Shown here: one piece after another, positions 13,607-54,200 of the stretch
How positions within the stretch are numbered: the first letter of the stretch is position 1
Layout: every line of letters begins with the position of its first letter
Notes under the pieces: generated by a model
The model's database searches: none
The model's input: the letters and a program-made list of their open reading frames with translations, nothing else
Told to the model about the DNA's origin: nothing
From: Blasia pusilla
Taxonomy: Eukaryota
Assembly (NCBI GenBank): GCA_050084515.1
Contig: CM114271.1
Span: 37,014,001-37,078,000, forward strand
Direction of reading: 5' to 3'
Length of the DNA stretch: 64,000 nucleotides
Made by a program: the position numbers and the translations under genes

Positions 13607-13610
13607 CAAG

Positions 13611-24164: not shown

Positions 24165-27100
24165 TTTGTACAATTGTTGCGTTGGTGAGCCCCATACCTA
24201 CCGAGACGGTTGAGGCATCCTAAGTTGACAGGAGGAGAGCGGCGCCGGATACATTAGTTCCTGAGGAGTTATACGAGTTGCTTTGCATTTAGCATGCAAG
24301 ATTAGGGCACGGTGAAGGGTCCACGGATCCGCATTGAGTTGTCAAGTAACACGCCGATCTTCCGACGACCCTACAGGTATAGTGACATGGAGAGAGCTTT
24401 GATTCAGAGTAGGATCCAGGACTTGGTTGGAGCAGGACTAGTAGAGATGTCGCATTGAGAGTATACATCTGCCACTGTCATGCCTGCCAAGAAGGATGTG
24501 CATGGCGACTGGACGGATAGGCGGATGTGTGGAGATTACCGACGTATCAATCGGCAGACGAAATCGGACAGGTATGCCATGCCCATCCCTGAGGAGATCT
24601 TTGATATGATTGGGCATGCAAAGATCTTCAGTTTTTTAGATCTTCGAGCCAGATACCATCACCTGCCTATCAGATTGGAGGACAAGCACAAGACGGAATT
24701 TTGGGGCATCGATCCTCACGGGAAGGATTTCTTGTACCAGTGGTAAGGATATATTGATGACATCGTCATCTTTAGTGCCATGGTTGAGGAGCATGAGCGA
24801 CATCTAGAGGAGGTGTTTCGACGATTGTAGTTATATGGGCTGAAGCTACATCCAAGCAAGTGCAAGTTCTTCTACGACCAGATTGAGTACTTGGATCATA
24901 CGATATACCCAAGTGGCCTTGGTGTGCAATAAACAAAGGTAGAGGCTATTTCACGCATTCTAAGCCCTACAGATGTGAGTCAAGTTTGTGTATTCATGGG
25001 ATTGGCGAACTTCTATCAACGGTACATCAAGGGTTTCAGCTTGATTGCGAAGCCGCTGACCTTGTTGACCAAGGTGGATTAGGAGTGACACTGGGGGGAT
25101 GAGCAAGAGAGAGCATTTCAGATGCTCAAGGATGGGGCATCCTTTAGAGTTGCATACCGATTGGAGCATGTTGGGTGCTTGGAGCCGTGCTCACCCAACA
25201 TGACGATGATGGTAGAGAGTTCGTGGTGGCTTACGCTAGTTGCTCGAACAACGCTGCAGAGACGAAGCATAGTTTGTATGAGGGTAAGTGCTTGGCTGCA
25301 GTGTGGACTGTCGCACATTTTAGATGTTATCTATTCGGAAATCCCTTTACCATCATTATTGATCATTAGCCACTTAAGTGGTTGATGGAGTGCGACAAGC
25401 TTATAGGGAAGTTTGCGAGGTGGGCTCTTTTGTTGCAAGAGTATGACTTCCAGGTAATGCATAGACCTAGGATGCAGATGGTTTGAGCTATAACCCATGC
25501 CCGAGTCAGCGAGATGCGATTGGATCTCGTTGGCATGGTGAGAGTGATGAGGAGTTGATGCCAGGATGGCATGCGTTAGCCTATTTGGGCTTGTTGGCTA
25601 TAGAGAGCCAGATTGCTGAGACTTCGATGGCGAGGTCTGATGGAGAGTCCTTAGATCCAGAGGCTGGTGAGGAGACAACAGATGGCCGAGACTTTCACGA
25701 CGATAGAGTGGTATTGGAGTACTTGCGTACTTGCAGCGTCGCGAGCACAATGGGTGCTAGAGAGTGGGATCGGATCCTACAGCGAGCCAGATGATTCCGA
25801 TGGGAGGGGACACATGTGTTGCGAGTGTGGAAGGATAGTAGAATGCGTGTAGTGCCTCATCCTTTGCAGAGAGCACGTTTGGTGCGTCATGCCCACGAGG
25901 AGTTGGATCATTTTGGAGTGAAGCGGACGTACAGCTGGTCCAGATTCAGTATTGGTGGCGAGGCATGCAGATTGACGTTTAGCAGTTTGTTGCCAAGTGC
26001 ATGGTATGTGATCGAGTCTGAGCATCATTCAATGCTCGGACTCCACAGTTGCATCTACTTCCGATCATGGATTTAGGTTATAGATGGAGTTTGGATTTTG
26101 CAAGATCTTTGCCTTTGACAAAGCGCCATAGTCGTTATGTGTTGGTGATGGTCGAGCACTTCTCGAAGTGGATAGAGTTGGTTGCATTTCCTAACAAAGC
26201 GAGTGAGGGAGTAGCGTATGCCTTCCTAGATTGAGTGCTGAGGCATTACGGTGCACCAGTTGAGGTGTTGATAGACCAAGGTATAGAGTTTCGCAGGGGG
26301 TTTCAGGCCTTTTGTGATCAGGCACTGATGGACCACCGCACCACTTCACGAGATCATCTCGGGCGCATGGACTAGCGGAGAGGGTTGTGCAGACGGTGAA
26401 GAGAGGATTACGCAAGTATGGCTTGCAGAGAGGTCACCTAGGAGATTGGGACCTTCAATTGCTGTGGTTGGCGATGGGATACAGATTCAGCAGGCAGACG
26501 TCCTTGGCATCTTTCTCACCGTACTTGCTGCTTTAAGGCCATGAGCCAGATTTATATGAGGCCATTCATCGAGATGTTGGTGAGGTGTTGAACCTTGATG
26601 ACTCTGATGTATGGATGAGAGCATGTTCACAGAGGACTGAGTTGTTCCGGAGAGTGATGCCCATGGCGTTTGAGAACTTGGAGATTGCGCAACATCGGGA
26701 TACATTGAGATATGCGACTATTAGGGGGGGTGGTTATCGACCTACTATGCAGAGGTTTCATCAAGAAGATTATGTCTACTTGCAGTAGACGTCACGATCG
26801 ACGTTGGATGTGACTGCAGGGCGCACCATCTTGAGAGTGCGTGAGGTTTTACCACCAGGTGTTCTCTTATTGGAGGGATACGATGATATGGTTTGGAAGG
26901 ACCATATGCGTAACTGTGCGCCGTGTCATCTTCCGAACATTGAAAATACATTTGATTTGAGCTTAGCAGTAGTTTCTGCAGGCTTGCGATGTATGTTGTG
27001 TGGTTCTGCCCGTGGTGCAGCCACTATGCTAGTCTATAATGGATGTTCGAGAGGATGGCATATGGCATGCTTAACGCCATCTCTCACTAGGATTCCTCAA

Positions 27101-28069
27101 GGATGATGGATGTGTCCTAGATATACATAGAATAGGTAGTTCTACATTCCCACTTGTGTCTGTGATGATATGGATGACAAGAAGGCGACGAACGATGGGG
27201 CCACATGCGCACCCGATCTTCTTGCTCTTAGCGTCCGAGAGATGTATGTCATGGTAGGTAGGGATAGATGGCTATCTGGAGTTAGAGGGACCTAACCACT
27301 AGCTAAGCAGGAGATTGGAGATATTTTGGTACCTATTGTCTCGTTGTTTGGATGCCATGAGTTAGCATGGGATCGTGCGTGTTTGTGTGTGTGTTCGATG
27401 ACAACGATGTATGTTATGTAGTGATGTGTATGCGCACGACAACTGTCACATCTTTTAGGATAGATCGGTGAGATCTAGTAGAGCGCCTTTGCGAGTAGTG
27501 GAGGACAGGTTCAGGAGGTCGAGGATGACCTGCTGAGGCTCCGAGAAACTTGAGAGAGCAGGTTCCCCCTTCGTTTCGACTCATTTGGAGCCATATTGAG
27601 AAACTTACTATTTTAGGCAAGTACCATTTTGAGTATATGGTCGACTTTATATTTATGGTAAGTAGCCCTTTACCTCCTACACCAGGTCAAGAGCCAAGGG
27701 GGTGACTTGGGAGCATAGGTTACCATGGAGAGAGCTTGGGAGAGGGGAGGGGTATACCTCAAGGAGAGAGAGCTTGAGAGCTCATTCTCTCTTTGTTGAA
27801 CCTCTTGGCATGAGGCAGCGGAGCTATGGTCTTGCTTGCCTTGTGTGTGTAACCCAAGCCTCTCATTAGGAGAGTGGGTTTGGATTGACATTGAGAGAGA
27901 CATGTGAGTGTGCACACATTTGAGAGCTATGGTGTTGAGAGAGATTTCACCTTATTTTTATTGGAGATATTTTGGTACTTCTTGTCTTGTTGTTTGGATG
28001 CCATGAGTTAGCATGGGATCGTGCGTGTTTGTGTGTGTGTTCGGTGTAGCGATGTGTATGCGCACGACA
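24165..28069 (+). mobile_element. 3' half of family-1 element (RT, RNase H, integrase, PHD, Y-X-Y end)
   Basis: RT motifs RMCGDYRRIN and YIDD (~24750). RNase H VVAYAS..YEGKCLAAVW..DH. Integrase WSLDFA..VEHFSKW. PHD CMLCGS..CSRGWHMACL. Ends GCGCACGACA at 28069, followed by CTTG. Confidence 0.92.
27314..28069 (+). repeat. Family-1 split direct repeat 3' end: Y 27314-27441, X 27444-27960, Y 27961-28069
   Basis: Both Y copies run TTGGAGATATTTTGGTAC...GCGCACGACA. X is the reverse complement of 13087-13606 and shares the diagnostic ATTTCACCTTATTTT. Confidence 0.92.
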
Positions 28070-33000: not shown

Positions 33001-33104
33001 TAAAAATCTATCTTCTAATAAAATTATATTTATTGCTCGTTTAAATTTTCTAAAATTTGAATTTTCCTTTCATCCATCGCTTTGGGATCTTGCATTTGTT
33101 ATTT

Positions 33105-33861
33105 TGTTGTGCGCATACACATCGTTGTCATCGAATACACACACAAACACACACGATCCCATACTAACTCATGGCATCCATACACAGAGGCGAGAAGTAC
33201 CAAAATATCTCCAATAAAGTAAGATCCAATCTCTCTCACAACACCATAGTTCTCACATGTGTACACTCTCACATGTCTCTCTCAATGTCAAACCAAACCC
33301 ACTCTCCTAATGAGAGGCTTGGGTTACACACACAAGGCAAACAAGACCATAGCTCCGCCGCCTCATGCCAAGAGGTTCAACAAAGAGAGAATGAGCTCTC
33401 AAACTCTCTCTCTTGGAGGTACCCTCCCTTCCCTCTCCCAAGCCCTCTCAACGGTAACCTATGCTTGCAGATCACCTCCTTGGCTCTTGACCTGATGTAA
33501 CGGGTCAAGGGAAACTTCCCAAAGTGGAAAGTCAACTATCCATAACATGGAAACTTACCTGAAATAGTAAGTTTCTCTATATGGCTCCATATGAGCCGAA
33601 ACGAAGGGGAAACCTGCTCTCTCAGGTTTCGCGGGGCCTCAACATGTCATCCTCGACCTCTTGGGCGTGTTCTCCACTACTCGTGCAGACGCTCTGCTAG
33701 ATCCCACCGATCTATCATAACAGTTGTGATAGCTATCGTGCGCATACACATCGCTACACAACATACATTGTTGTTATCGAATACACACACAAACACACAC
33801 GATCCCATGCTAATTCATGGCATCCATACATAGAGGCGAGAAGTACCAAAATATCTCCAAT
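33105..33861 (-). repeat. 3' split repeat block: Y 33734-33861, X 33215-33731, Y 33105-33215
   Basis: GTGCGCATACACATCG...CCAAAATATCTCCAAT occurs twice, flanking a copy of 43595-44112. Confidence 0.93.
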
Positions 33862-34047
33862 CGCCCCCCTAGCTGGTGGTTAGGTCCCTCTAACTCCAGA
33901 TAGCCATCTATCCCTACCTACCACGACATACATCTCTATGACGCTAAGAGCATAAAGCCCGGGTGCTCATGTGGCCCCATTGTTAGTCGCCTTCCTGTCA
34001 TCCATGTCACAGAAAAATTCGGAATCAAAACCTATCTAGTATCTCCT

Positions 34048-35330
34048 CTATGTACATCGGGGACACATCCATCGTCCCCGAGGAACCCTAGTGAGAGGTG
34101 GCGTCAGACATGCCATATGCCAACCTCTCGAACATCCATCACACACTAGCATCGTGGCCGCACCACAAGCAGAACCACACAACATACAACGCAAGCCTGC
34201 AGGAACTACTTCTAAGCTCGGATCTAATGTACCATCAATTTTAGGAAGGTGACATGGCGCACAATTACGCACATGGTCCTTCCATACCATACCATCGCAT
34301 CCCTCCAGCAAGAGAACACCGGATGGCAAAACGTCATGTACTCTCAGAATAGTGTGCCCTACAGTCACATCCAACGTCGTTGGTGCCGTCTGCTGCAAGT
34401 AGACATAATCTCCCTGATGAAACCTCCGGATAGTTGGTCGATAACCACACTCCGAATAGTCGCATACCTCAACGTATCTTGATGCTGTGCAATCGTCAAG
34501 TTCTTGAATGCCATGGGCATCACTCTCCAAAAAAACTCAGCCTTCTGAGAACATGCTCGTATCCATACATCTGGGTCATCAAGGTCCAGCACCTCACTAG
34601 CATCTCGACGAATGGCCACAGGTAAATCTGGCTCTCGGCCATAAAGTAGCAAGTACGGTGAAAAAGACGCTAAGGATGCCTACCTGCTGAATCTGTATCC
34701 CATCGCCAACCATGGCAACTGGAGGTCCCAATCTCCTAGGTGACCTCTCTGCAATCCATACTTGCGTAAACCCCTCTTCACCATCTGCACAACTCTCTCC
34801 GCTAATCCATCCGCCTCAGGATGATCTCGCGAAGTTGTGCGGTGGTCGATCAACGCCTATTCACACAAGGCCTGGAACTCACCGTGAAACTCGGTACTCT
34901 GGTCTGTCAACACCTCAGCCGGTGCGCCATAATGACTCAAGACTCGATCTAGGAAGGCATACGCTACTCCATCACTCGCTTTGTCAGGCAATGCAACCAA
35001 CTCGATCCACTTCGAGAAGTGCTCGACCATCACCAACACATAACGACTGTGACGCTCCGTCAAAGGCAAAGGTCCTGCAAAATCCAAACTCCATCTATAC
35101 CCTAAGCCCATGATCGGTAATGGATGCAACTGTGGAGTTGGAGCATTGAACGATGCTCGGACCCGATCACACACCATGCACCTGGCAACAAACTGATGAA
35201 CGTCAGTCTGCATGCCTCGCCACCAATACTGAATCAGGAGCAAGCTGTACGTCCGCTTCATCCCAAAGTGACCCAACTCCTCATGGGCATGCTACACTAG
35301 TCGTGCTCTCTGCGAAGGATGCGACACTAC
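34048..35330 (-). pseudogene. DDE integrase with C-terminal PHD finger (PHD ~34051-34195)
   Basis: HHCC motif HAHEELGHFG..CMVC, then WSLDFAGP, VLTDQ and GLAERVVQ. C4HC3 PHD CMLCGSACGAATMLVCDGCSRGWHMACLTPPLTRVPRGRWMCPRC. Confidence 0.93.
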
Positions 35331-35699
35331 GCGTACTCTACCATCCTCCCAAACCCTCAAAACACGTGTCCCCTCCCAACGAAACAGTCTGGCTCGATGT
35401 AGGATCCGATCCCGCTCTCTAGCACCCACGGTGCTCATAACGCTGCCAGTACGAAGGTACTCCAAGACTACTCCATCATCATGAATATCTCGGCCACCTG
35501 TCGTCTCCTCATTGGCCTTGGGATCCAAGCATTCTCCACTAGATCTCGCCATCGAAGTCTCCACACTCTGGCTCTCCATAGCCAACATGCCTAAATAGGC
35601 TGACGCGTGCCATCATGGAATTGACTCCTCATCACTCTTTCCATGCCATCGAGCTCCAGTCGCATCTCGCTGACTCGGGCATGGATTACAACTCAACCC

Positions 35700-37050
35700 A
35701 TATGCATCTTGGTTGAGCATCCCAGGTCTATGTACCACCTGAAAATCATACTCCTACAACAACAAAGCCCATCTCGCAAGCTTCCCTGTAAGCTTGTCGG
35801 ACTCCATCAACCACTTCAGTGGTTGATGATCAGTGATGATGGTAAAGGGGTTGCCAAATAAATAACACCTGAAATCCACGACAGCCCATACTGCAGCCAA
35901 GCACTCACCCTCATACGAGCTGTACTTCACCTCTGCGGCGTTGTTCGAGCGGCTAGCGTAAGCCACCACGAACTCTCTACCCTCATCATCATGTTGGGTG
36001 AGCATCGCTCCAAGCCCCAACATGCTCCAATCTGTGTGCAACTGGAAAGGACGCCCCCTTATCGGTCTCCTCAAGATCGGCGCAGACGTCAACTTGTCCT
36101 TGAGCAACTGAAATGCTCGCTCTTGCTCATCCCCCCCAGTGCCACTCGTGATCCACCTTGGTCAGCAAGGTTAGCGGCTTTGCAATCGAACTGAATCCTT
36201 TGACGTATCGCCGATAGAAGTTCACCAATCCCATGAATGCGCGAACACGACTCACATCTATAGGGCGTGGAATGCGTGAGATGGCCTCTACCTTTGTCAG
36301 CTAAACACCAAGGCCCCTTGGATATATCGTATGACCCAAGTACTCAATCTGGTCGTAGAAGAACTTGCACTTGCCTGGATGTAGCTTCAGCCCATGTAAT
36401 TGCAATCGTCGAAACACCTCCTCTAGATGTCGCTCATGCTCCTCAAGAGTGACGCTAAAGACTACGATGTCATCAATATAACACCTAGCAAAATCCAGAC
36501 CAGCCAAGATCCTATCCATGAACCTCTAAAACTCAGCCGGGCCATTCTTTAACCCAAATGGTAAGAACCGCCACTGGTACAAACAATCTTTCCCGTGAGG
36601 ATCGATGCCCCAAAATTCCTTCTTCTGCCTATCCTCCAATCTGATAGGCAGCTGATGGTATCCGGCCCGCAAATCCAATGAACTGAAGACCTTTGCGTGA
36701 CCAATCGCATCAAAGATCTCCTCTTGTTGGTGGGCATGGCATACCTATTGGACTTTGTCTTGCAAAGGCTCGATTGATAGGTCGATAATCCCCACACATC
36801 CGCCTATCCGTCCAGTTGCCATGCACATCCTTCTTGGCGGGCATGTGGTTGAGTGTGAATGCATACTCCCCATCGACATCTCCACTAGTCTGCTCCGACC
36901 AAGTCATGGATCCTACCTCGTATCGAGCCCTCTCCATATCATGATTGTGGCAAAGGGTTTTGAAGATCGACGTATCACTGACAACTCAATGCGGATCCCC
37001 GGTCCCTTCAAAGATACCCAAATCCTCCATGCTAAATGAAGCGGCTACCT
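35700..37050 (-). pseudogene. Ty3/Gypsy-type reverse transcriptase and RNase H
   Basis: RMCGDYR, CYIDDIVVFS, KCKFF..YLGH, LHTDWSMLGLGAML, YEGECLAAVWAV and TDHQPL. Confidence 0.95.
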
Positions 37051-37479
37051 ATAACTCCTGAGGAACTGATGTATCCGGCCCCGCTCTCCTCATGTCAACT
37101 TAGGGACCATATTTGGCTCCCAAGTCTCCATCGTGACTACGGTAAGACTTTCCGACGAGGGTATCGTGGGTTCAAAAACACTCGGCCGCTCTCCTACAGC
37201 CAACTACAAACTTTCATCTCCTCCACGTGCAGTGCTCGGAACCACGCTCGATGTTGTGGCTATCATCTCCTGGCGTACTTGCAAAACATCCCAACAAGTC
37301 CAAGGGTGTCTCTCCCGATCTCCTCTCTGGTGTAGAACTCCTCGGCTCTCGCCCCCAGCCACTACCTCCACCATCTCGGTAGGCATGGGGCTACCAATTG
37401 CAATTTGTATGTGGTAGTGATCTATGTCGCGATCTCATCATAGACTTAGCCCACTCCCAACAAGAGGATCCATGTCGAG

Positions 37480-39424
37480 TATTTCAGGTCCATCGCTCTG
37501 ACCCAAGACATGACGCTTGTCGTTGATACCTCGACATTGCCCTAGCGATCTGCCGTCACTCATGAGGGAAATCCCATCGCTTGCTCTCTCTCGTCGGCGT
37601 TGGGCTCCACCAACCGCTGAACGTGGTCATCCCAAACCAAGCTGGGACTGGCCTCCTTGTATGCATAGGAAGAAGGAAAACTCACAAACATGGGCAAGGC
37701 TACCCGCGGCTTGCCTACCCTGTTGACCACAATCAACGGTGGTCGATCATCGTGCCTCACTACTTGTTATCGACGACATGGATCAAAAATGGAATCCACT
37801 AACAAATGGGAGGGGCCCTTCACTCTCGCATATGCCCTTTGTAACACCGTATGTGTCGCGACCCTCATGACCAAACAAGTGCCAAGCGGAACATCGGAAC
37901 ATTAGCGGGCTCACGCTAAGATGGTTTGCGCGTTGGAGTTGTCTCAAAGAGGAGACAAGAGATGAGACGCGAGCGAGAAGCCGCGTTTCAGATGTGATGG
38001 TCGCGACTCGGAAACCTGGACCAAACGCGGAATGAGACTTGAAAGAAGTCGAGTCTAGGAAGTGGGTTGCCAAAGGAAAGATCCGGACTTGGAACGCCAC
38101 TTGTGTTTGAGAGTTTCCGACTGTATTTATGGCCATAACTTTTAGCGCCAAGATGCATTTTGAGCAAATAAGAGTGCGTTGGAAAGCTTATGGAGAGCCG
38201 GTTCAAACGCACCAAAGATCGCTGCAAACGCATAAGCAGAGACCGAGATACGACCCGAAAACGACTGTAAGTGGAGTCGGGTCGAGGGCCACAATGAAGG
38301 GCCCGAACCTCTTTTCCCAAAGGGGAGGGGTTATTGGAGAACTCCAGAAGTACTAGTAAGGGGGAAGGTCTCCGAGAGTGCTTGGAACCCAAACCCCACT
38401 TTGGGCCATGGGGCGCTCAAGGGCATGGAACGGAACGCGAGTTTGGGCGTTGGGTTGGAGAACCTGCACCAAGTCTATTGAGGCGATTTTAGACATCCCT
38501 CTTGGATTTCACGCCGCGACTCAATTACTTGGGTCTCGGTTCGGAACTCACACGAGGACCGTTGAACAGTTGGGATTGCTAGGCGTGTAAGTGCCGTTTC
38601 AGATCCCTGGACTAACCAGGAAGTCTGTTCCAAGTCTTGAAGGACTTGCCATGTGTTGGGAGCTAGGAATTAAGGAAGGTTGAGCTTGATGAGACGCCGA
38701 GTTGAGGACTCGGTGGGTTGGAACGCCGGTTGGCCAAACCCGACTAACGAGAGTGCGTGTTTGGGTGCAGATCGGCGATGAGTTCGTGACCTACTGAACA
38801 CACGCTTCCGCAACACTAAAGATTGACGTTCAAGGAGAGTAGGGGCGCGACAGTATGGGGCACCAAGTTGGTCCACCATAGACGCGGGCGGTGGGCTCTA
38901 GAACCTACACTCGCCGCATCCAAGAACACTGCTTGGCCGATCTAGGCACGCACCTGATGAGCACTCGTCACCATCCGTGACTTGGAGTCTCCTAAGATTG
39001 GCACATTCTCCGGAATGTAGGCTGGAGATCGAGACTCGTGCTCTTGCAACTGCCGTAAGACCCTCAACATCTCCCAAAACAACAAGGACCGAGTGTCAGC
39101 CAACCCGCTGCCTCGTCTAGCACTCGATTGGCCTTGACATGGCCAACCGGCAATGACCAAATCAATGGTCCCTTCCTGCTCTAAGTCATGCGCCCCCAAC
39201 AACGAAATATCCCTCTGTAGGGAACTCTGGTACCCTGTACCGCGGACGTAGACAATAAGTCGGGAAAACGAGGGGCGAATCGCTGCGCCACATGTCATAG
39301 TGAGACGCGCCTCGCAACATCATCACTCTCCACATACAGGTACTGTTGCACTCGCACTCCTACCTGCAAAACAGCAGCTAACCCGGTGCTAATCCCTCCA
39401 AAGAGATCTAACACTCGAATACCC
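37480..39424 (-). pseudogene. DNMT3-like C5 cytosine methyltransferase domain, interrupted by a solo LTR
   Basis: Motif I IRVLDLFGGISTG (~39385-39424), II YLYVE, III DI, IV IDLVIAGWPCQGQS (~39125-39165), V RSLLFWE, VI ENV (~39003-39011), VIII AHRPRLWWTNL (~38865-38900), IX EREQAMGFP (~37565-37595), X RHVLGQ (~37500). Confidence 0.92.
37854..38852. mobile_element. Solo LTR (999 bp) of an unrelated family inserted in the MTase domain
   Basis: Termini TGTCGCG...CGCGACA with a 5-bp TSD GTATG at 37849-37853 and 38853-38857. No coding motifs recognised inside. Confidence 0.88.
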
Positions 39425-39849
39425 TCCTCTGGGATACACCACAAAATGGGTGTGGTATCCAAGGGTGTCATCGTTGCACTCCCTGCTACCTCGTTTTCTT
39501 CAGACCCATCACGCTCCGGTGCAAACGCCTTGCTCCACACGGTCTGCACGTGCTCATCTGCCAATCGTCGAAGCTCCTTAGTCGAGCCCCACAATGGCAC
39601 CTCTCCTCCACGGAATGATGCGGCTACCATAACACTCCTCTCCATAGAAATGTCAGGAATGGGAGTATCCTCTGCATGGACATGTCCCTCAATCAAATCA
39701 CTAGGCCAAGTGATGGCACTGCTAAATGCTACTAAGGTCGCCACCTCTCTTGGCCGTCGCTCGATCACTGCACCTATGAATCGAATGGGTAATGAGCTAA
39801 GGCGCCCATCACGTGACTGCCATCCTGGTCTGTAGGACGCTGACTCCTC

Positions 39850-42361
39850 CTAGTAATCCAGGGAAAACCCCATCGAGTATAACACTGCTCCACCAACCAA
39901 GACGTCGTAGGACTCTGCATCAGTCACTATCGCCTTGGCTCGCACCACGGACTCATCTGTAGGATGTCTCGGGCGAATCCTCACCACGACCTCCTGTCGG
40001 GTGATGTACTGTGTGGTACTCGCTCCACCCAAGGATGTCTATATCTGGAATGGACAACGCTCCATATCGGCTCTTGTCAAGCCCAATCCTCTGAATGACG
40101 CTTTCCCCAACATCAGGGGTTGCGCTCGTGAATCCAACAAGACGCGCAGCGGACTAAAAGCTCTACCTCCAAGACTCACCAACTGGAAGACCTCTCCTCG
40201 GTTATCCAACAACACAACACCATCTAGACGCTCTATCGCGGGTCTAGCGGGCATCTCCGCCATCCTAGCAGCCGCAGCCTGCCATGAATCTGACGTAGAC
40301 GGCCCGAGCATCCTCTCCAAGGGCAGGTCTATCACCTCTGAACGTGATGTAGGAATTCCAACTCCGTGCACACATAGTGAAGCAGCCAGCCAAAAAGCCT
40401 TGGCGGGCATACCCCCCAACGTCATAACATCGGAAGCAGAAAATAAAGGAGTGCGGTACAAAATGGTGGCTGCCCCCAACAACGTGCTTGATACATGTCC
40501 CTCATGGGCATCAACAATAGGAGTCGTTGCACTCGCTTCTCCCATTGCCCTCCATGTCTGCACACCAACAACATTGCCAACTCTCCATGAACTTTGATGA
40601 GGACCCATCAATGGGGTCCTCATCGCTTCGGACGACGTGAAAGATTGAGGAAGCCTAGTTTGTTTTCTGGCTTACCCTCGCTATGGATCCAACTCTGCAG
40701 CTGCTCCACGCATCACAACGGTGGCGGCCTCCATCTGGGCAACCCCGCACATCCAACCAGGATCCTCCATATCTCTAGTTGCTCCATATGATGTCGATGC
40801 CACGGATCCGGCATCGAGTAACCTCAATATCATAGCGGCAATCTGTTCATGTAGGTGCTGTATCTGAGCAGCCATCCCAGCCTCACATCCGATGTCTCCC
40901 TCGGCGCGTCTAGGTGGTGGTACTCTACCTCCTCCACGGCAACTCCACCACCCAATCGGACAGCTCCAGCTCCTCGTCCCCTAACAGGACCACCTGGTGC
41001 ACGATCTCTAGCCCACCCGGACCGGCTACTCGCTTTGGTGCCCTCTCTGGCCCTCGGTCCGGACGTAACTCAGGATGTAAACCGAAACACCTTGCACGTG
41101 TATGACCATACTTCTCACAATAGTCACACTGATAACCTCCTGGTGCAGCACCATCTCCTCCTCCATGCTAAGGCACACGTCCGTGACCCTGACGAGTGCA
41201 ATCGCGCTGATGATGGACTCCACCATATGACCAACAAGTAATAGTAGGGGGCTGCTGTTGAGCCGCATATGAAGGCGCAAGTCTCTGTGGCACGGCCTCC
41301 CAGTATTCCCCCTAAGCTCGTGGTGCCACAGTCGACCTATCCCGGAGTCCACGTTCTTTGCCGCGTGTGGTGCGACCAATCGTCGGATCGCTCTCTTGAG
41401 AACCCATGGTGGCTACGCTCTCCTCCGCCATGTTGCGCTCAATGTTCTCGGCGCTCCTAAAAACATCTCTCAATGTAGGGGAGGTGTTCATAAGAAGCAG
41501 CCCCTCCCGCACCCGTGTCCGCAGGGTCCGGTCCAACATCGCGTACCATGACTGGATAGCCTGAGCCTCTGTCACCCCCTGAGTGACGTTGATCAACCAA
41601 CACAAGCGAGTGTTAGCCTCATGCAAACTCTCACAAGGGCGCCTCTGGAAGTCGTGGATGCTCCGCAACTTCTCCGTTTGTACCCCATGGTAGCTCGCCC
41701 TCAACTCAGCAAAGAACTCAACCACAGGGTTGAACCTGGGACCAACCCGACTAGACAGTACAAGTGCTCAAGTGCAAGTGACCCCTCCTAAAATGTCACT
41801 AGTAGAAGAGGAAGTAGCCTCTCATGACTCCTCCTCCTCATCTGGGAATATCTCCGTCCATGACACATAATGTGGGTCATAGTAGAGCCTCCACGCCTCG
41901 ATCTCACGTGCATATCTCTGAGAGAACTCATGGTAATCGTCTATGGGTGCCTCCTCTAAATGCTGGAACATACCGTTCCATGCTATAAATGGGTTGAACT
42001 CTCTAGAGTTCCTTGCCCGTTGGGAGTCGCACCAACTCCTAAACTCTACTATGAAATCGTGCAACTCAATCATACCTACTGCACCTGAAAACCTGCGCGG
42101 TCCTCTACCCCGGTCGTCCATCTCGTACACCCAACTGGTAGGACCACTCACAATGTGTGGCGATATGCTCACAAACTCCTCTACACCCTCCCCCTTGTCT
42201 GATGATGACACAGAAGGAGGTCGAGGTGGTCCCTCACGTGGAGACCCTCGGAACCTCGCGCCACTCCGCGTAAAACCTCTAGAGCTACTCTTAGGTTCAT
42301 CACCTCGCCTCTCAAAGTGCTGAACAGAAGCTGTGATGACACTCGTGCCCCTCTCACCCAA
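39850..42361 (-). pseudogene. Gag (with zinc knuckles) and aspartic protease of the full-length element
   Basis: Gag-like ORFs 41822-42361 and 41312-41725. Knuckle region ~41085-41275. Protease VLLDS(R/G)AQ and YDVLVG. Confidence 0.85.
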
Positions 42362-43594
42362 TCACTCTCGCCTTGCGAGTAATCCCTCAATCACTCATCC
42401 CAAACATGCGGCACTCGATCTACACTCTTCCTCCCCGAGACGTGTAACGTGCTGCAACAAGCGGCGTGGTGCGGAAAATCGACCAGGCTATCATCTCATT
42501 GACAACCTACCCTCAACTCCGGACATCCCTAAACCACATACATAAATGATGTCTATGTCCCCTAAACCACATACATCACAACATAGCTGAACAAATGTCA
42601 ATGAAATCAAAACTCAAACACCATAACAATCAGGAGGTCATCGCGCCAAAATCACGGTGTGATTCAGCGGAACGGTTCATGACAAAAGCTGCGATGGGAC
42701 GGTGGCTCCTCAATCAAAACAAAGCATGTGGTGGCGGCGCCAAGTCGGCGTGGCAAGAATCAACACGCGTCGTGGAAGACCCTCCACTCAACATAGCGGA
42801 AATCAAAATGGCACCAAAGGATGGACAACGCGACGACGCGGTGGCGGCCAAAACAAAGCATGTGGTTGTCGAGAATGATGGCAAGCAAAGGATGGACAAC
42901 GCACGATGAACCGTTGACGGTGACGGTTGACCGTTGATGGTGACGGCCGACCGGTGACGGTGACAGTTGACCATTGATGGTGATGGTTGACCATCGATGG
43001 TGGACCATTGACGGTGAATATGACGGCGATGGCTGCCGCCGGCGTGGTGGCTGGTTTAGGGTTTGAACAATTTAACCATAAAAATCTCCTAGCAATGGCA
43101 GTTTTGCAAGATTGACCATAACTTTTTGCTCGCAACTCCAAATTGCGCACTGCTTTTTGTATAGCGTGCACAGCTTCACGATCTACGACAATGTCAAAAA
43201 ATATTTAGAATTGAACATTTCAGTAAAAATTGACAGGGACTGTCGTAAATCCCAATGTCTCTTTCTCTTACACAAAATTTGGCATCGCTTCCGCGCTGAT
43301 TTCTCCCAACGAAAATGTAAAACCTATAAAAATACAAATCAGCAAGCTACATGGTGCTCCTGAGAGCATTGGCATGGGGCAACCCGCCCCCATAATCAAT
43401 CTCTATCAGAAACTGGGCAGCGCTTCCCTGCGCCACTCTTCCACACGAAAAATCGGCAAATGCAAAAAACAATCAAAGCAGCCCTTGCTCCGGTGAGCAC
43501 TCCCATGAGACGCTGAACGGGGAACACGGTCCCCAACCTGCAAAAATAGTGAGTGACCAGCGAGCTCCCCCATGAAGCTCTATCACTCTCTCTT

Positions 43595-44112
43595 TGTAAA
43601 GTAAGATCCAATCTCTCTCACAACACCATAGTTCTCACATGTGTGCACTCTCACATGTCTCTCTCAATGTCAAACCAAATCCACTCTCCTAATCAGAGGC
43701 TTGGGTTACACACACAAGGCAAGCAAGACCATAGCTCTGCCGCCTCATGCTAAGAGGTTCAACAAAGAGAGAATGAGCTCTCAAGCTCTCTCTCTTGGAG
43801 GTATACCCCCTTCCCTCTCCCAAGCCCTCTCAACGGTAACCTATGCTCGCAGGTCACCTCCTTGGCTCTTGACCTGTTGTAACGGGTCAAGGGCCACTTC
43901 CCAAGTGGAAAGTCAACTATTCCCAATATGGAAAGTTACCCGAAATAGTAAGTTTCTCTATATGGCTTCAAATGAGCCGAAACGAAGGGGAAACCTGCTC
44001 TCTCAGGTTTCGCAGGGCCTCAACATGTCATCCTCGACCTCCTAGGCCTGTCCTCCACTACTCGTGCAGACGCTTTGCTAGATCCCACCGATCTATCCTG
44101 ATAGTCGTGACA
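43595..44112 (-). repeat. 5' X repeat (LTR-like, 518 bp, TG...CA)
   Basis: Matches 33215-33731. On the - strand it is followed by AAGAGAGAGTG rather than a TGG-type PBS. Confidence 0.93.
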
Positions 44113-44638
44113 ATTTTGTGCATCTCTAGTTTGGACTCTTCTTTTCTATATCCACCTTGTTTGTATCATCAATCTTTAATCCCTCATTTTATCTACTATT
44201 GTCATCCATCCTTGACTCAAGTGCACCCCTTTGTCTTTTGATATGTTTCTAGTTCCATTAACATAGTATAGCCATATGTCCATCCTTTTATCGGGCTATC
44301 ATTGCATCATTTCTTTTGTCTATCTGTCCATCATATTTGTGAATTTTTTTCAAAATGTTCTGCTAGATCCCACCGATCTATCCTAACAATCGTGACAATT
44401 TTGTGCATCTCTAGTTTGGACTCTTCTTTTCTATATCCACCTTGTTTGTATCATCAATATTTAATCCCTCATTTTATCTACTATTGTCATCCATCCTTGA
44501 CTCAAGTGCACCCCTTTGTCTTTTGATATGTTTCTAGTTCCATTAACATAGTATAGCCATATGTCCATCCTTTTATTGGGCTATCATTGCATCATTTCTT
44601 TTGTCTATCTATCCATCATATTTGTGAATTTTTTTCAA
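44076..44638. repeat. Tandem duplication, ~285-bp unit spanning the element terminus and flank
   Basis: TGCTAGATCCCACCGATCTATCC...GAATTTTTTTCAA starts at both 44076 and 44361. Confidence 0.92.
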
Positions 44639-47319
44639 TATGTTTTCTATGATCCCATCATGTTTTCATTTTTTTCCCAAGAGCAATCTAAATCAAATCA
44701 CAACTCAATCCACCTTCATTTCAAATACAAGAATGGAATCAATAGTGGATCTAGTTAATATTGTTGCAACCTAATGATAATAACATGTCATTATTAGGGA
44801 GTTCATAGTGGGTAATGTTACTAATGTGAGTTAATGTTACTAAGCATTAATGATATGAGATTATGTGCTTATCTCCCATTGTGGTTTGAATCAAATTTAA
44901 GGAGATACTTGAATGGGAACCATTTGATAGTCATTATTGATCAAGCTTACAAGAAAGCTTAGCATGTGAACTCTACCATGTTAGGAGCAAGAATATCAAG
45001 TGGTTTACATACAAGCTCAAGAGCATTGGAAAATCGATCTATTTTATCAAGTGAGTTGGATAGAGTTTATTGGCCACAAAATGTTCAATGGGTTCATGAG
45101 CACACCTTTTTTTGTTTGAGAAGGTTATCTTTTGGTGTTTTGTGTCTAATGAAAGTGGTGTGGAGTGGGCATCTTAGGGCTACCTTCCGTGGGCAAATTG
45201 GGATTTTCGTGTCCATGTGACAAACCCGAAATTAGAGTCCATACATAGAACGGAAAATGGATACTACTACTGAGATTAGTATAAAATCTGACAACATTAC
45301 TCTGCAATAGAAATTTTTGGGGTTAACAGAATTAACTTTCTACTTAGAAATCCTCATGACCCCCATAATTGAGGACACTATGCTTTCAGGGTGCCATAGG
45401 CATCATAAGCAAGGCTAGAATGAAGGAGTTTATGATTTGTTGGAACGAGGTATTGACGAGACTCTAACAAAAGCATGTGATAAATAGTTAAACAGTAGGG
45501 GCTACGACTACTAACTTCAAATTGATGAAGATTCCTAAGGTGTTTTGAATTGAGGAGCAATTTTAGACCCCATTAAATTCACACTTGATTTTGGAGGTGG
45601 TCACCTCTTTAGAGTAGAATGCCTGTAGTATGATAAACAAGACAATCAATTTGCAATAAGATTCTTTAACAATCTTATAGGTGGTTAACAAAGGTATCAA
45701 GTGGTTATACCAATATTTGATGTTATATTGGCTTGACCTAGAGAGTTATTAGGAAGTGACGGTTCCTTTGGAGGGTGTGCATATAGGGGATGGTCCTCAA
45801 GAGAAACATGTAATGGGATGGATGTCTCTCCCACCACCATATTTGGGATATCCCGTTTTGGAATGGGCCCGAAGTCTCTAATGGCAACCTACGATGTTGT
45901 GTAAATGGATTAAAACATGAGCAACAAACTTGGAGTGAGATTTGTTTTATTTAGGAATCATACAATCTCCTTGCTCGTGGATTAAGGGTATTTTTATCCC
46001 TTAGACAACACCTTCTAGTCACAATATACAAGTCAAGTGTGAGTATTTCATCTATTTGGTGGGATGACACTTACCTTATGCTGTTGGAGGCCAATGTTCA
46101 TACTGGACAAAGGTGGGAATACAAGATTAATTTTTTTACATTTTGTATATTCTTATATTCTCAAATGGGATGTTTCTTTGAATCTCCTAAAACTTTCCTA
46201 CAATTTTCTTTGCTCCAAACATGATGTGTGGATTTTGATGTGGATGGTGTCTTTGCTCTTAAATTGTGAATTCATGCCACTCAAAAACCAACCAATCATG
46301 AGTAGTTTCCATCAACACACCAAATGCTAATTTTCCATCCCCATCGTGCATGGAAGCCCATAAAAGAAAGGAAGAAAGTGGACTAAAGAATACCAACACC
46401 AAAAATTACCATAACCGTACACAAAAGTTCTATAATTGAGACTTTATGAAGTACATAGAGCAATCTTGTGGCAGTTTCTAATTACAGCCTTGCAAGGTGT
46501 CACTTTTTTCCTGGCCATCTAGAATATCCACGCGCCCTCTACATGTATGTATTCATCACTTTCTTCCCCCCTACCAATCTCAAAGGAAAGGGCCGCACAT
46601 TGGTTAGACTATACTACAAAAATCCCTTGAATTTCACATCCCCAAGTAGCCCCTTATATGCAGACCCAGGCCTGGCCAACACTCCATACCAACAATGTGA
46701 AGCCAAGTAGTTTTTTTGTCAACCATCTATGCTAATTATAGGAGGGGAATGGTTTCTTGATTTGTCAACTCCTTGGATTGTCGAACATTTATCCTTATCC
46801 TAGGATAGTCAAGCATTTTTCTAACAAGTCTCAAGTGGAGCAAATAAAAGTTGGCTCGATGCAAAGCATAGAGTCCCATCATTACTAGTCATAGCTGGAA
46901 GCAAATAGAATTGAATTCCTTTAAGTTCCAAGTCAATGGAATTTACTCATCATAATTTTCTGCACCTACATTGGAGCAGTGAGTGAGATACAAAGCTCAA
47001 GCTTCTAAAGAAAAGAGAAGCCCATCCCTTCACAACGCCTCAATTCTGTTCGTCTGTCTTGTCTGTCTGTCTACTCCAAGAAATGAAAGTCATGGATCCT
47101 CTACTGGTTAAGTACACTCACCAGCAGCCTCATTCATTCTAGTCATGACACTCGAGTTTCCATTCAGATCTTGTGGTCGAGAACCTCGTTGCTTCCTGAT
47201 TGTGCTTAACGAAGATGCATAGAACTGGGCAAGCATCAGACTCTTGAGACAAAACAGTTTCATGAGATTGGTGAGATCTGGATGATTGTGCTCAGTAATG
47301 GTGAGCAATCTCCAACAGT

Positions 47320-50599: not shown

Positions 50600-51257
50600 G
50601 TAGAGGGATTCTTGTTTTGGTGGCTAAGCTTGAGCCTCGTCTTCACTGCAGGAAATGCTTTGCCACGGAGACCGCCCACGTCACTTCATTCTCGAATTGC
50701 TCGCAATGGATTACACTTGAAGGCAGTGCGAGGAAGGAAAGGCACTTTAGCAGCTTGCAGATCGGAATTGGTCTCTGCTGCAATGCCTGGTTTGGTCACT
50801 GCGCTTCTGTTTGCCTGGGAAGCGCGAGGCGTGAATATGCGAGCATGAATGGAAAGAAAAGGGAGACGACTTAGAAATGCGATGGGGATTGAATTCTCTG
50901 ATCATTGCGTGGAGATGCTATTGAGGTTTTCCTCCTTTGGCTGAAGTAACGATTAATGACGTGCGGATCACGCATGAGGATGGAGGATTTGTATACTTTC
51001 CCTACAGGTTGCAGAGATGTATGCCCGGGCAATCCTAAAGCTTGACATCTGGAGAAGGAATTAATAAGCAAGCTCACACGTCGTGGAAAATTGGGTTCCC
51101 CAAGTGTGTGTAGTGTCGAGGTTGATGTAAAAGGCTGTGATGGTGCCACGAAGGCTCCAAAATCGCAACTTGTGCAGGGGCTTTCTGGACCTACGAGCGG
51201 TGCAATTCAGGCTTTTCATGTGATTGCGCTTCTAATCATCGGCTGAAAGTTGGAACG

Positions 51258-54200
51258 ATGGCTGGACAAACAGCCTCCCGGTTTAAGGATTTAGCCAGGG
51301 TTGCTTCGGGCTTAGCACTTGTTGTGAATGAATCAGTGCAGAGGGTACCGGCAATTGGAAAGCTCAAAGCAGGTGATGTTGTCGGCTCCTCAAGCGCGGC
51401 CCTAAAATTTTTGCAGAATACTGTAGCTGACATCACCGGGCTAACTCGAGGGCGTCTTCACAGTTACCCCAACTCTTCTGTGTCCCACATTGTTCGCGAT
51501 AGTAATGAAGGAGTGGATTCCGTGAAGGTTTCTAGATCTGCAATTGAGAATGAGAATGGTGGTTCTGCTGCTACGAGAAGCACAGTTTCACAGCCCGAAG
51601 AGTTGTTCCGCCCTTCTAGCTCTACTGGAGATGGACACACGATCGTGGCTCCTGAGCCGTTTAACGAAACAACAACTCCTTCTTTGAAATCGGAACTTTA
51701 CAATGCGGACTGCCTTTCTGGAACAACTGACTTTTCTTCGAGGCAGGAGACTTTTGAGAGGACGATCGATCCAGGCGCCAGTGAAACTCGCCATGTTGAA
51801 TCCGATGCATCAGTTCCCCCATCCAACCTCGCAGCTCAAGTATTGCAACAAAGCTCTGAGGAGAAGGCCACCCCTTCTTCACCCACGGAGACTGGTGGAG
51901 TGCCAGGTGGGTCGTCCAGGACCAGGATCCCAGGGATTGATCGACCTGTGAAGAAAAGGAAGCCCAGAGAACGGCGCGTGCCTTCCACTCCGATCGGTCG
52001 AGCAATAGGGTTGGCATTTCTTTCACTCTCCAGCTCTCGCTTGTTTCTGTCTGGGTGAGAACCGAATGTTGTTTCCTCGTGGTCAAACTTCTACTTCTCT
52101 GTGAGACCTCTTTCTCTATGGAACAAAACGCAACAGCCTTTGCTGAAATTGCTAAGCTGGTAACCCCAGAGCTGTTCGTCGCGTTCAATAGCCTAGATTC
52201 AACCATAGCACAAAGCTACTGCACTGGTAAGTAACGTTCACTGGGGATCCCAATCAAGTACGGTAGGTACATTGTAAAAAGGCTCTATGTTGATACTTGG
52301 AAGCTTAGATAGATTTGTAAACAGGCTCTATGTTGATACTTGGAAGCGCCGCACCAAACTCTGTATGGTGAGCACTCACACTATGAGAGAAGTCTTCCTC
52401 ATCTCGTATGGTACTTTCTTCACTTCTTCTTTCCCTGCACCCATTCCAGTCTTAAGCACCGTCCAACCAGGGAGAGCTCTTTGGTCGCAAGGCTACGACA
52501 GGCAATCCTTAATGAGTACATTCTCTTCAGCATCATGAAACCTCGCTACTTGCTCACCTGTGCAAACTTCACAACATGGAGCAACAGTCCATGCTGAAAT
52601 TGCTAAGCTGGTAACACCAGCTCGGTTCATCACGATCAGCAGTAGTATAAACTCGCTGCCCTAAGGTGCTGCACTGGTAAGTTACGTGTGTTAGGGATCC
52701 CAATCGAGTAAGGTAGATGGCGGTATAAAGAGCTTCTTGGTGGAAGAAATGCACCAACACTCTGCATGATGAGTACTCACACTTGATCCCTCTTCTCAGA
52801 TGGTGGTAGACAGTTTCCTTTCTCGCATATGATACATCACTTCTTCACCCTGCAACCATCCCTGGTCGTAGAACCGTCAATATCTCCTGTGCCCAATAGG
52901 ATATATGGTCGCAAGGTTATGGCAGGCACTATTTAACATTCTCTCAGTACTCAGTATAACTAGTTAACCAGGCCATGGGGTATATGGTCGCTATGATAGG
53001 CCCTACTTAATGAGCAGTCTCTACAGCACCGTGGAATTTGCAACAAATAGAGCGACAACCTACGATGAGAGTGCTGAGTTGGTACCACCAGAAAAATGCA
53101 TCAAGTTCAGGAGCTTAGATTCACTGTTGCAAGGCAGATGCACTGGTAGTTAACGCCTGTTGTCAAGCCTAATCAGGTAAGGTAGACACATTTGTGTTGT
53201 AAAGAATTCCTTGGTTGATGCTCCGTACCAACACTCAGTATGGTGAGCACTCACACTATATGAGAGTGTGTATGTCCTCTCTTATGGTACTTTCTTAACT
53301 TATTCCACCCTCTCCATCCCACTCTTTGGGACCGTCCAACTAAGCCGCAGTATAGTAGGTTGCAAGGATACGACAGGCACTTCTCAATGAGTACAGCCTC
53401 TCCTAGGCGGAGATGAAACCTCCAGTACTTATCTGGTCACTTGTGCGCAATCCATAATACAAGTAACAACTACCCACACTGAGATTGCTAAGCTGTTACT
53501 AGCAGAGCTCTTCATCACGTTCAGTAGGCTAGATTCACTGCTCAAAGCTGCTGCAATGGTAACGCCTTATGGGCGTCCCAACCAGATGAGGTAGATGGTG
53601 TTATCAAGTGTATCTTTCCTGATACCTGGAAGCTCCCCACTCTGCATGGTAAGCACTCTCACTATGTAACAGTCTCCATTCTCTTATATGACACATTCTT
53701 GTCTTTCTCCACGTCTTCTTTCCTCCCATCCCACTCATCCTCTTCCTTACACTATTTGTTGGTATTACAATTTATGAACGGATCGTCTCAAGTGATAGAT
53801 AACTCAGGTATGAGACAATGGTGAAGTCAACATCATCCTCCTGATCAGCTATTTGGAGGTTTTTTGCCATTTCTTTCACATTTTATCGTTACAGCTGTTT
53901 CTCTGTGTTCGCTTTAGATCTCCATTGACCAACTCGGATGCCTCCCCACGTCTATGTACACTACCTCCTCTGTGGTACCCCTCAACAAATTAAAGTTTTC
54001 CCATTGCTTCCAGCGCAGTGACAGATTCGTAAATGGGAAATATCTTACTGCGATTCCTGGAACCAATAACGGGAAGGTCGTGAAGTGGTCAGTAAGTTCT
54101 GGTAACTCACCATTACCAGGTTGGTTGTTGATTATGTTTTAGAATCAGAGTTTCTCTACAACCTAGCTATTACAAGCACACTTAGTGCAATAGCAACCAC

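Follow-up and report, generated by a model that had tools for sequence, protein, structure and literature searches.

How does a DNA cytosine methyltransferase come to lie inside the polyprotein of a liverwort retrotransposon, and what might it do there? This question is raised by a stretch of 64,000 nucleotides from Blasia pusilla (assembly GCA_050084515.1, contig CM114271.1, positions 37,014,001 to 37,078,000 of the forward strand), which was analyzed as a whole and is called the window; the positions below are counted from its first letter. A first-pass annotation had placed the ordered motifs of a DNMT3-like C5-cytosine methyltransferase (MTase) on the pol strand of a retrotransposon, between the protease (PR) and the reverse transcriptase (RT). 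According to our analysis, the region from 33.1 to 44.1 kb on the minus strand, hereafter copy 1, is very probably one old and dead Ty3/gypsy long terminal repeat (LTR) retrotransposon with a former single gag-pol frame of the order gag(CCHC)-PR-DNMT3-like C5-MTase-RT-RNase H (RH)-integrase (INT)-PHD, in which the MTase was an integral, inherited pol domain, and which belongs to the land-plant branch of a streptophyte Gypsy-DNMT3 lineage.

The methyltransferase domain in the pol region of copy 1

All the C5-MTase motifs that had been announced between the protease and the RT were located in copy 1, in order and on the pol strand. The frame is broken, so that only remnants are left, as listed here:

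39414-39388, minus strand: motif I, VLDLFGGIS
39342-39319, minus strand: motif II, YLYVESDD
39151-39131, minus strand: motif IV, AGWPCQG
39016-38999, minus strand: motif VI, IPENVP
38896-38864, minus strand: motif VIII, AHRPRLWWTNL
37700-37677, minus strand: C-terminal block, ALPMFVSF
37607-37566, minus strand: C-terminal block, EPNADEREQAMGFP
37499-37482, minus strand: C-terminal block, RAMDLK

The profile PF00145 matched the open reading frame (ORF) at 38942-39319 with an E-value of 1.3e-10 and 41.6 bits, above the curated cutoff of 22, which bears out the assignment to the DNA methylases. In the Pfam scan of copy 1, five of the 10 stop-to-stop ORFs had family matches and five had none; taken each alone, the ORFs of MTase motif I, of the MTase C-terminus, of the protease and of gag gave no Pfam match. 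Searches with Marchantia polymorpha proteins (tblastn) reached an E-value of 3e-161 and ran colinearly through gag-PR-MTase-RT-RNase H, with a break exactly at a solo LTR. From its 5' to its 3' end, copy 1 holds the following features (related proteins are cited by their numbers, such as P0004):

43597-44110, minus strand: 5' terminal repeat A1 (LTR), starting with TGTCAC, 93.4% identity over 515 columns to 33215-33729
41063-42121, minus strand: gag (tblastn with residues 4-370 of Marchantia P0004/P0013; four in-frame stops in the high-scoring segment pair, HSP)
41128-41087, minus strand: gag CCHC zinc knuckle, CDYCEKYGH...C, located by motif position
39850-40938, minus strand: aspartic protease region and linker, colinear with residues 378-820 of P0004
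39549-37441, minus strand: whole MTase, between the protease remnant (40140-40120) and the RT (36480-36454)
38853-39549, minus strand: N-terminal two thirds of the MTase with motifs I, II, IV, VI and VIII (PF00145; alignment to 23 liverwort-family proteins; best PDB match DNMT3A)
37854-38852, minus strand: solo LTR from a different element, which separates motif VIII from the C-terminal third of the MTase
37441-37853, minus strand: C-terminal third of the MTase, motif IX and X region (tblastn with residues 1070-1198 of P0004, 49% identity; alignment)
36154-37149, minus strand: RT, across three frames (PF00078, RVT_1, E 5.8e-16 at 36301-36525; tblastn with residues 687-976 of P0006)
35754-36161, minus strand: RNase H (PF17917, E 8.8e-35; PF17919, E 1e-31)
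34857-35291, minus strand: integrase, H2C2 zinc finger and catalytic core (PF17921, E 9.4e-15; PF00665, E 6.7e-11)
34054-34188, minus strand: PHD finger at the C-terminal end of pol (ORF 34048-34536; PF00628, E 4.2e-11)
33732-33861, minus strand: short repeat B1, just upstream of A2 (94.8% identity to 33119-33215 across 97 nt; alignment with the corresponding repeats of copy 3)
33215-33729, minus strand: 3' terminal repeat A2 (LTR), pairing with A1
33100-33215, minus strand: short repeat B2, just downstream of A2

Copy 1 is a Ty3/gypsy element by its pol order PR-RT-RNase H-INT and its gag CCHC knuckle, with the MTase placed between PR and RT. The RT motif reads YIDDIVVFS at 36480-36454. The active-site remnant of the protease at 40140-40120 reads LLDSRAQ, in which DSG has become DSR; LLDSG is retained in a second, divergent family of the window (family 2, below) and in Marchantia. 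The solved PHD fingers nearest to that of the element are those of PHF12, CHD4, KDM5 (PHD1), KAT6A, DPF3, PHF21A, ATXR5, AIRE and UHRF1, which we take to be readers of the unmodified H3 tail.

Decay of the element is extensive. Along the tblastn path, the frame of copy 1 changes at least 7 times and is crossed by about 20 in-frame stops. The MTase itself is interrupted after motif II by a TGA stop (39295-39297), then shifts frame before motif IV and has a TAG stop ahead of motif VIII (38942-38944); three more in-frame stops lie in its C-terminal third. Copy 1 is dead and does nothing itself, and the view that all copies in the 64-kb window are inactivated was confirmed. The solo LTR that interrupts the MTase, also suspected earlier, is genuine: it measures 999 base pairs (bp), ends in TGTCGCG...CGCGACA (TG..CA), is flanked by a 5-bp CATAC duplication (38853-38857 and 37849-37853) and is not present in the second copy of the family in the window.

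The ends of copy 1 depart from a simple pair of direct repeats. In addition to the 515-bp repeats, the 3' end carries the extra repeats B1/B2, so that a repeat B of about 100-130 bp lies on both sides of A2 and the order is A1...B1-A2-B2. The same B1-A2-B2 order was found in a third copy of the window (27314-27410, 27441-27958 and 27960-28067). No target-site duplication of the whole copy 1 element was found at its flanks. We take the layout to be the 'split direct repeat' known from elements of the DIRS/Ngaro type. For the element KnitGypsy-Dnmt3 of the alga Klebsormidium nitens, de Mendoza et al. (2018; PMC5890265) give DIRS-like repeats together with gypsy-type domains in the legend of their Fig. 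4c, and the ends of copy 1 seem to fit this description. As a separate observation, a tandem repeat at 44076-44657 (285 bp, two units, 97%) abuts the outer edge of the 5' repeat.

To which type of C5-MTase does the domain belong? A read-through translation (with X at stops) of the piece that holds motifs IV-VIII was compared to PDB sequences with phmmer; DNMT3A was the best match (3e-7), followed by DNMT3B/3C, and M.HhaI came at 0.009. A profile built from ten intact liverwort-family fragments gave the following E-values against PDB:

DNMT3A: 1.6e-16
DNMT3B / DNMT3C: about 4e-14
DRM: 6e-10 to 5e-8
DNMT2: 1e-5
M.HhaI: 1e-4
DNMT1: absent from the list at <=1e-3

The AlphaFold model of the intact domain of the relative P0007 (46 aligned sequences) had a mean local confidence (pLDDT) of 92.5 and a template modelling score (pTM) of 0.89, and its top Foldseek matches were all DNMT3A/B/C (E 1.6e-18, TM 0.84 on the target). 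The DNMT3-like wording of the motifs, noted in the first-pass annotation, is thus matched by DNMT3A/B/C ranking best both by sequence and by predicted fold. The motif order is I-II-IV-VI-VIII-IX-X without circular permutation, and no Pfam match to PWWP or ADD was found in the ORFs of the window or in any relative scanned. Since the motifs are not permuted and PWWP/ADD matches were not found, the domain is, judged by sequence and predicted fold, of the DNMT3-type catalytic kind only. The host enzymes, animal DNMT3A/3B/3C and plant DNMT3/DRM, resemble it as best sequence and fold matches, by the motif order I-X and by AHRxRxxWxNL in motif VIII. In contrast to host DNMT3, the element domain is devoid of PWWP/ADD, shows only about 20-23% identity in the fold alignments and lies within a retroelement polyprotein; DRM differs in that it is circularly permuted. 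The predicted complex of two copies of the MTase domain scored 0.00, which gives no verdict and weighs neither way.

Recurrence in the window and in other green lineages

Three further copies or relics and one divergent element of the window bear on the question whether the MTase was inherited with the element:

5703-9202, minus strand: copy 2, same family, with gag and PR and two MTase parts, namely motif I (6324-6139) and the stretch from motif VIII to the C-terminus (6224-5703) (tblastn; blastn 80-82% to copy 1)
24219-28069, plus strand: copy 3, same family, reduced to the region from the RT to the 3' end and devoid of any MTase part (blastn 80.6-83.9% to 33105-37104; tblastn with residues 703-1190 of P0006)
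6-354, plus strand: relic of the C-terminal half of an MTase, truncated at the edge of the window (two tblastn HSPs, 6-134 and 205-354)
14811-17504, plus strand: divergent family 2, with gag-PR (14811-17154) and a degenerate motif I, truncated right after it (tblastn with residues 2-752 of P0004; ORF 17214-17504)

The recurrence announced at 5733-6230 corresponds to the two tblastn matches of copy 2, in which the stretch of motifs IV-VI is missing and the sequence ends before the RT. Similarly, the remnants announced at 1-350 are present in the relic at 6-354, where most of the 23 MTase queries gave E-values of about 1e-10 to 1e-11. Because copy 2 and the relic also have the MTase, the domain is heritable and no chance insertion, as had been argued. 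The announcement of an MTase in family 2 (around 17440) was confirmed only weakly: RVLDLFRRI lies at about 17436-17462, at the expected distance after the colinear gag-PR, and this degenerate motif I is followed by the truncation of the element; no MTase match was obtained in family 2 by tblastn even at E<=1. The gag and PR proteins of family 2 are 41-47% identical to those of copy 1.

We also considered whether copy 3 and family 2 might be parts of a single element that had been split. This was rejected, as copy 3 shares 81-84% DNA identity with copy 1, compared to the 41-47% protein identity of gag/PR in family 2. Further rearrangements were noted. In copy 2, the 5' repeat, leader and gag start occur twice in tandem, at 9337-11500 and 11499-13660 (minus strand; period about 2162 bp), and about 270 bp at 6303-6573, between its MTase motif I and the upstream linker, have their counterpart (77.7% identity) at 37107-37372, downstream of the MTase in copy 1. 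Just after the truncation of family 2, the AT-rich stretch 18445-19179 (plus strand) has ORFs that resemble by eye the gypsy-type RT of an unrelated family; one ORF was tried and had no Pfam match.

Relatives outside the window were found by a word-seeded search, which returned 23 proteins of 48-71% identity. An organism name was attached to 11 of the 23, all liverworts (Marchantia polymorpha, 8; Calypogeia fissa, 3). In uninterrupted relatives, the MTase is in frame with PR/RT: the Marchantia protein P0006 is one annotated protein with MTase at 460-529, RVT at 833-919 and RNase H at 974-1098 (MT-RT-RH), P0044, P0179 and P0290 (the last of 2138 amino acids) have the order CCHC-PR-MT-RT-RH-INT, and P0294 of Closterium reads CCHC-PR-MT-RT. 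PF00145 scored 23.5-58 bits in the relatives; P0074 had no PF00145 match at E<=0.001, though the profile search puts an MTase at 2134-2465. At E<=1e-3, that profile search over clusters at 50% identity gave 7585 cluster representatives, of which 393 reached <=1e-30; the 150 top-ranking matches were all below 1e-55, and many of them were polyproteins of 1000-3456 amino acids. The architectures of 279 proteins with an MTase domain were tallied from Pfam scans and landmarks:

PR-MTase-RT..., as in copy 1: 29 proteins
RT-RH-MTase-INT-PHD and truncated forms: 134 proteins
MTase, then directly INT: 34 proteins
MTase only: 82 proteins

A FastTree phylogeny of 246 domains and the window fragment, computed without a host DNMT3 outgroup, placed the window in one clade with all 24 proteins of the PR-MT type and 27 of unknown type (support 0.999), and this clade had no members of the RH-MT-INT type. 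Inside it, the window belongs to a subclade of 16 tips (0.986), which also contains all sequences of Marchantia and Calypogeia. Named members of the larger clade include GAQ93235.1 of K. nitens and six Closterium proteins. GAQ93235.1 has the order CCHC-PR-MTase; its MTase is 37% identical to that of the liverwort-family P0007 (E 4e-59), and it aligned with Marchantia P0004 (E 2e-54) in one HSP of 569 columns that reaches from the PR active site as far as the end of the MTase. The PR-linker-MTase module is homologous among the liverwort, K. nitens and Closterium elements, and because of this homology we assign the window family to the land-plant branch of the streptophyte Gypsy-DNMT3 lineage.

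Could the liverwort elements instead have taken up a host DNMT3 apart from those of Klebsormidium and Closterium, the common position being a convergence? Retroelements captured DNMT genes several times according to the available text of PMC5890265 and of the preprint 10.64898/2026.05.21.726589, and the tree contains no host outgroup. On the other side, the single Marchantia-K. nitens HSP joins the protease active site to the MTase across the linker, both have the same order of domains, the A1...B1-A2-B2 ends of copy 1 seem to be shared with the K. nitens element, judged by the Fig. 4c legend of PMC5890265, and element MTases match each other at E<1e-55 and DNMT3A only at 1e-16. We therefore regard a separate capture as improbable and retain descent from one streptophyte lineage.

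Three additional searches added little. In one profile search, the K. nitens protein was absent among the 120 listed of 168 matches; a search for longer proteins, from an alignment that included 12 non-liverwort PR-MT-type fragments, gave only four matches, with no organism names; and a search of a protein-cluster atlas returned generic PF00145 clusters only.

The elements with the order RT-RH-MTase-INT-PHD have named members in the chlorophyceans Scenedesmus sp. PABB004 ('pol' KAF8056149.1), Haematococcus lacustris and Chromochloris zofingiensis, and many more contigs are unnamed. They resemble the window family in a related MTase (profile E<1e-55), a gypsy backbone and a PHD after the integrase. 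They differ in that the MTase lies between RNase H and integrase, and not between PR and RT, and they stand on the opposite side of the 0.999 split. In the 246-domain alignment, the PC of motif IV has become EC (GWECQD) in 144 of 246 domains with an invariant Cys; EC is probably the more frequent form in the chlorophyte-type elements, and the liverwort-type sequences in the alignment with the 23 proteins keep PC. These elements form a sister group that is far larger, has another domain order and seems to be undescribed. Its proteins include P0046, P0047, P0106, P0151, P0116/P0242, P0089 and about 130 more. A further protein, P0265 (1974 amino acids; RT-RH-INT-PHD Pfam matches; MTase profile E 2e-117), is labelled 'MAG: reverse transcriptase domain-containing protein [Minisyncoccia bacterium]' and probably represents DNA of a eukaryotic alga that was assigned to a bacterial genome during binning.

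Elements of this kind were known before. DNMT-bearing retroelements of the dinoflagellate Symbiodinium and the Gypsy-Dnmt3 element of K. nitens were described by de Mendoza et al. (2018; Nat Commun 9:1341, PMC5890265), so that the mention of both groups in the first-pass annotation was correct. According to the main text of that paper, the K. nitens copies form a divergent Dnmt3-related clade, and KnitGypsy-Dnmt3 resembles the window family as a Ty3/gypsy element with an unrearranged DNMT3-like domain in the pol ORF and signs of purifying selection. It differs in its host, a charophyte alga with few copies as described there, compared to a liverwort with a very high copy number here, and in the PHD, which follows the integrase here and is never mentioned in that main text. 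GAQ93235.1 is presumably one of the published copies; the main text of PMC5890265 gives no gene ids.

SymbioDIRS-Dnmt3 and SymbioLINE-Dnmt of Symbiodinium and the EpiLTRs of Cymbomonas and Euglena (DNMT4-like, DAM and chromodomain) are likewise retroelements with a C5-MTase in or beside pol, but they belong to other element classes (tyrosine-recombinase DIRS, long interspersed nuclear element (LINE) and chromovirus, respectively). In the available text of PMC5890265 and 10.64898/2026.05.21.726589, these captures are judged different and independent by the authors, and the DIRS-borne Symbiodinium MTase methylates CG de novo in yeast (PMC5890265).

In our search of the literature, we found no report that liverworts or other land plants harbour such elements, no description of the Marchantia gene ids, and none of a PHD-bearing chlorophyte gypsy group with an MTase; the supplements of PMC5890265 and PMC12344493 may list such sequences. 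The available text of PMC6453930, PMC5784723 and PMC12344493 does not mention such elements, and in the text available, the 2025 paper PMC12344493 and the 2026 preprint 10.64898/2026.05.21.726589 cite only de Mendoza et al. (2018) for streptophytes. The window family is a known kind of element in a new host group, and no new class is defined.

Constraint, transcription and possible roles

We then asked whether the domain was under selection. Ratios of non-synonymous to synonymous substitutions (dN/dS) were estimated by the Nei-Gojobori method between the dead copies of the window:

MTase, copy 1 versus copy 2: 0.44-0.48 (174-218 codons; bootstrap 95% 0.29-0.69, upper bound 0.64-0.69)
gag, copy 1 versus copy 2: 0.41
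PR and linker, copy 1 versus copy 2: 0.55
RT-RH, copy 1 versus copy 3: 0.33

Between copy 1 and family 2, synonymous sites were saturated, and no ratio is claimed for gag. The constraint on the MTase was about equal to that on the other domains, and the ratio with its upper bound shows that the MTase did not evolve neutrally. These values overstate the ratio of the active lineage because both copies decayed neutrally since their insertion; the main text of PMC5890265 gives Ka/Ks<0.2 for K. nitens, and the weaker constraint found here is expected after neutral decay. Among the 246 relatives, the catalytic Cys was kept in 245 of 245, the Glu of ENV in 245 of 246 and the two Arg of the motif-VIII RxR in 242 and 245 of 246.

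Three RNA sequencing runs, which carry the same species label as the best-matching DNA run, were sampled at about 6-12% of each run. In all three, reads were placed on the window (3159, 3069 and 3280). Since about 90% of these reads are no more than 90-95% alike, they stem from transcripts of relatives and not of copy 1. The first mate was found on the plus strand about 10-100 times oftener than on the minus strand. If the library is of the usual stranded type (dUTP, deoxyuridine triphosphate), this bias corresponds to sense-strand RNA of the element. Read depth reached 10-55 in the bins of the MTase (38655-39785) and stayed at about 0-1.5 within the solo LTR. Reads joining 37850 to 38855 (5, 5 and 9 per run) skip exactly the solo LTR and one copy of its duplication; therefore, the transcribed relatives have a continuous MTase at this place. 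Reads of all three runs also join 33421 to 33915 (skipping 493; 3, 4 and 9 reads) and 36208 to 36240 (skipping 31; 4, 8 and 7 reads). These two joins were not seen in the placed DNA contigs, and they are structural variants among transcribed relatives or the result of processing.

With these data, the possibility of an artefact can be addressed, namely that the motifs match by chance or that a host DNMT3 pseudogene or foreign fragment fell into copy 1 alone. Copy 1 is strongly decayed and already has one nested insertion, which would suit such an accident. Nevertheless, the Pfam and tblastn statistics, the same position of the domain in copy 2 and in dozens of independent proteins of Marchantia, Calypogeia, Closterium and Klebsormidium, and the RNA reads of relatives that continue over the MTase domain leave it a negligible chance, and we rejected it.

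In one DNA run, 254,712 contig pieces were placed on the window; the family is very abundant. Small shares in 'air metagenome' runs and in three further organisms (B-D) were set aside. The observed/expected ratio of CpG was 0.69-0.79 in the Gypsy-DNMT3 copies (33730-43596, 5703-9623 and 24219-28069), 0.52-0.59 in the flanks and 0.14 in a Copia element (54137-59426), which makes the MTase-bearing family the least CpG-depleted repeat in the window.

What could the domain do in intact relatives, the only ones in which it could act? In such elements, the protease of the element would cut the polyprotein, and the MTase, made and probably packaged beside the RT, would add methyl groups de novo to newly synthesized double-stranded cDNA or to the fresh insertion, a step that we propose tentatively. 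The PHD of the integrase, probably of a type reading unmodified H3 tails, may steer integration to silent chromatin unmethylated at H3K4, and the new copy would arrive already resembling host heterochromatin. Chromoviruses are gypsy elements with a chromodomain fused to the integrase C-terminus, presumably targeting integration. The steering by the PHD may be comparable to that by these chromodomains; a histone-reader module at the integrase C-terminus is common to both, and the window family has a PHD, not a chromodomain, plus a DNA methylation 'writer'.

Several points weigh against this picture and against parts of the evidence beneath it. Release by the protease, packaging, the substrate and the methylation of cDNA or target are steps that we infer. 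The strand call of the RNA hinges on the library being of the usual dUTP type, and most reads are only 90-95% alike, which does not allow a fully open frame to be claimed for any transcribed copy. The CpG ratio of 0.69-0.79 is not obviously what heavy long-term CG methylation would predict. The placement as DNMT3 follows from rankings of E-values and folds and not from a tree with host DNMT3, DRM and DNMT1. Finally, the K. nitens domain, the sole streptophyte example, showed no DNA methylation in yeast, a result that the authors call inconclusive in the main text of PMC5890265.

Alternatively, the MTase may act mainly on host DNA near the target site or in trans, and not on its own cDNA, thereby building or spreading heterochromatin as a safe haven or as a self-limitation that benefits the host. 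The fusion of the PHD to the integrase suggests work on nucleosomal chromatin, effects on insertion sites and on the host methylome are discussed in the main text of PMC5890265, and trans effects are conceivable for a family of very high copy number. In contrast, the MTase adjoins the RT, far from the INT-PHD, and no chromatin-reading PWWP/ADD domains turned up in the scans of window ORFs and relatives. We consider action on host DNA unlikely.

A domain that no longer methylates DNA, and instead methylates the RNA of the element (5-methylcytosine, as DNMT2) or is a structural or nucleic-acid-binding part of pol, would agree with the yeast result for K. nitens, with the RNA methylation proposed for the LINE-borne DNMT (main text of PMC5890265) and with copies that are not CpG-depleted. 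However, the catalytic residues of a DNA C5-MTase are nearly always kept, a purely structural role would not keep the Cys in 245 of 245, and DNMT3A/B/C are nearest, with DNMT2 far weaker (1e-5 versus 1.6e-16). A loss of DNA methylation is thus quite unlikely, and methylation of the cDNA or fresh insertion by the element's own enzyme remains our tentative proposal.

A wider reading would combine these elements. Land plants would have kept the MTase-bearing retrotransposons of their algal ancestors, and liverworts would carry a high-copy, still transcribed Gypsy-DNMT3-PHD lineage that came down through the streptophytes (Klebsormidium, Closterium), with an active de novo MTase that pre-methylates the element's own cDNA or insertions and measurably shapes the host methylome. 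This lineage and the chlorophyte RT-RH-MTase-INT-PHD elements would be two parts of a single ancient clade of the green lineage, whose MTase module changed its place in pol and whose members join a methylation 'writer' to a histone 'reader'. Taken as a whole, this is possible but doubtful.

The lineage reaches land plants and is abundant and transcribed there, and a retrotransposon with a copy of a host silencing enzyme is a striking twist in the arms race of host and transposon. Uninterrupted copies are present in the public annotation of Marchantia polymorpha (Mp_4g09160, Mp_8g17980, Mp_6g11220, MARPO_0091s0058 and others) and bring the question of function into a genetically tractable model with good methylome tools. 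In addition, 'DNMT3' gene counts in bryophyte and algal proteomes can be inflated by copies of the element.

Neighbouring features of the window

Beyond the Gypsy copies, we observed the Copia element already mentioned, a probable host gene and a tandem repeat:

54137-59426, minus strand: Copia element, with an ORF of 848 amino acids for gag-PR-INT and an RVT_2 ORF in other frames
54137-54746 and 58824-59426: terminal repeats of the Copia element, 90.5% alike over 634 columns, including an identical stretch of 300 nt
51141-52058, 60803-61216 and 61365-61530, plus strand: probable host gene of the ABC1/ADCK atypical kinase family (PF03109, E 1e-9 on ORF 61365-61760)
63305-63715: tandem repeat with a 219-bp period, 98%

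The ORFs 51141-52058 and 60803-61216 had no Pfam match, and we put them in the same ABC1/ADCK gene by what we take to be a resemblance to this family. The Copia element sits between ORFs that resemble exons of one host gene.

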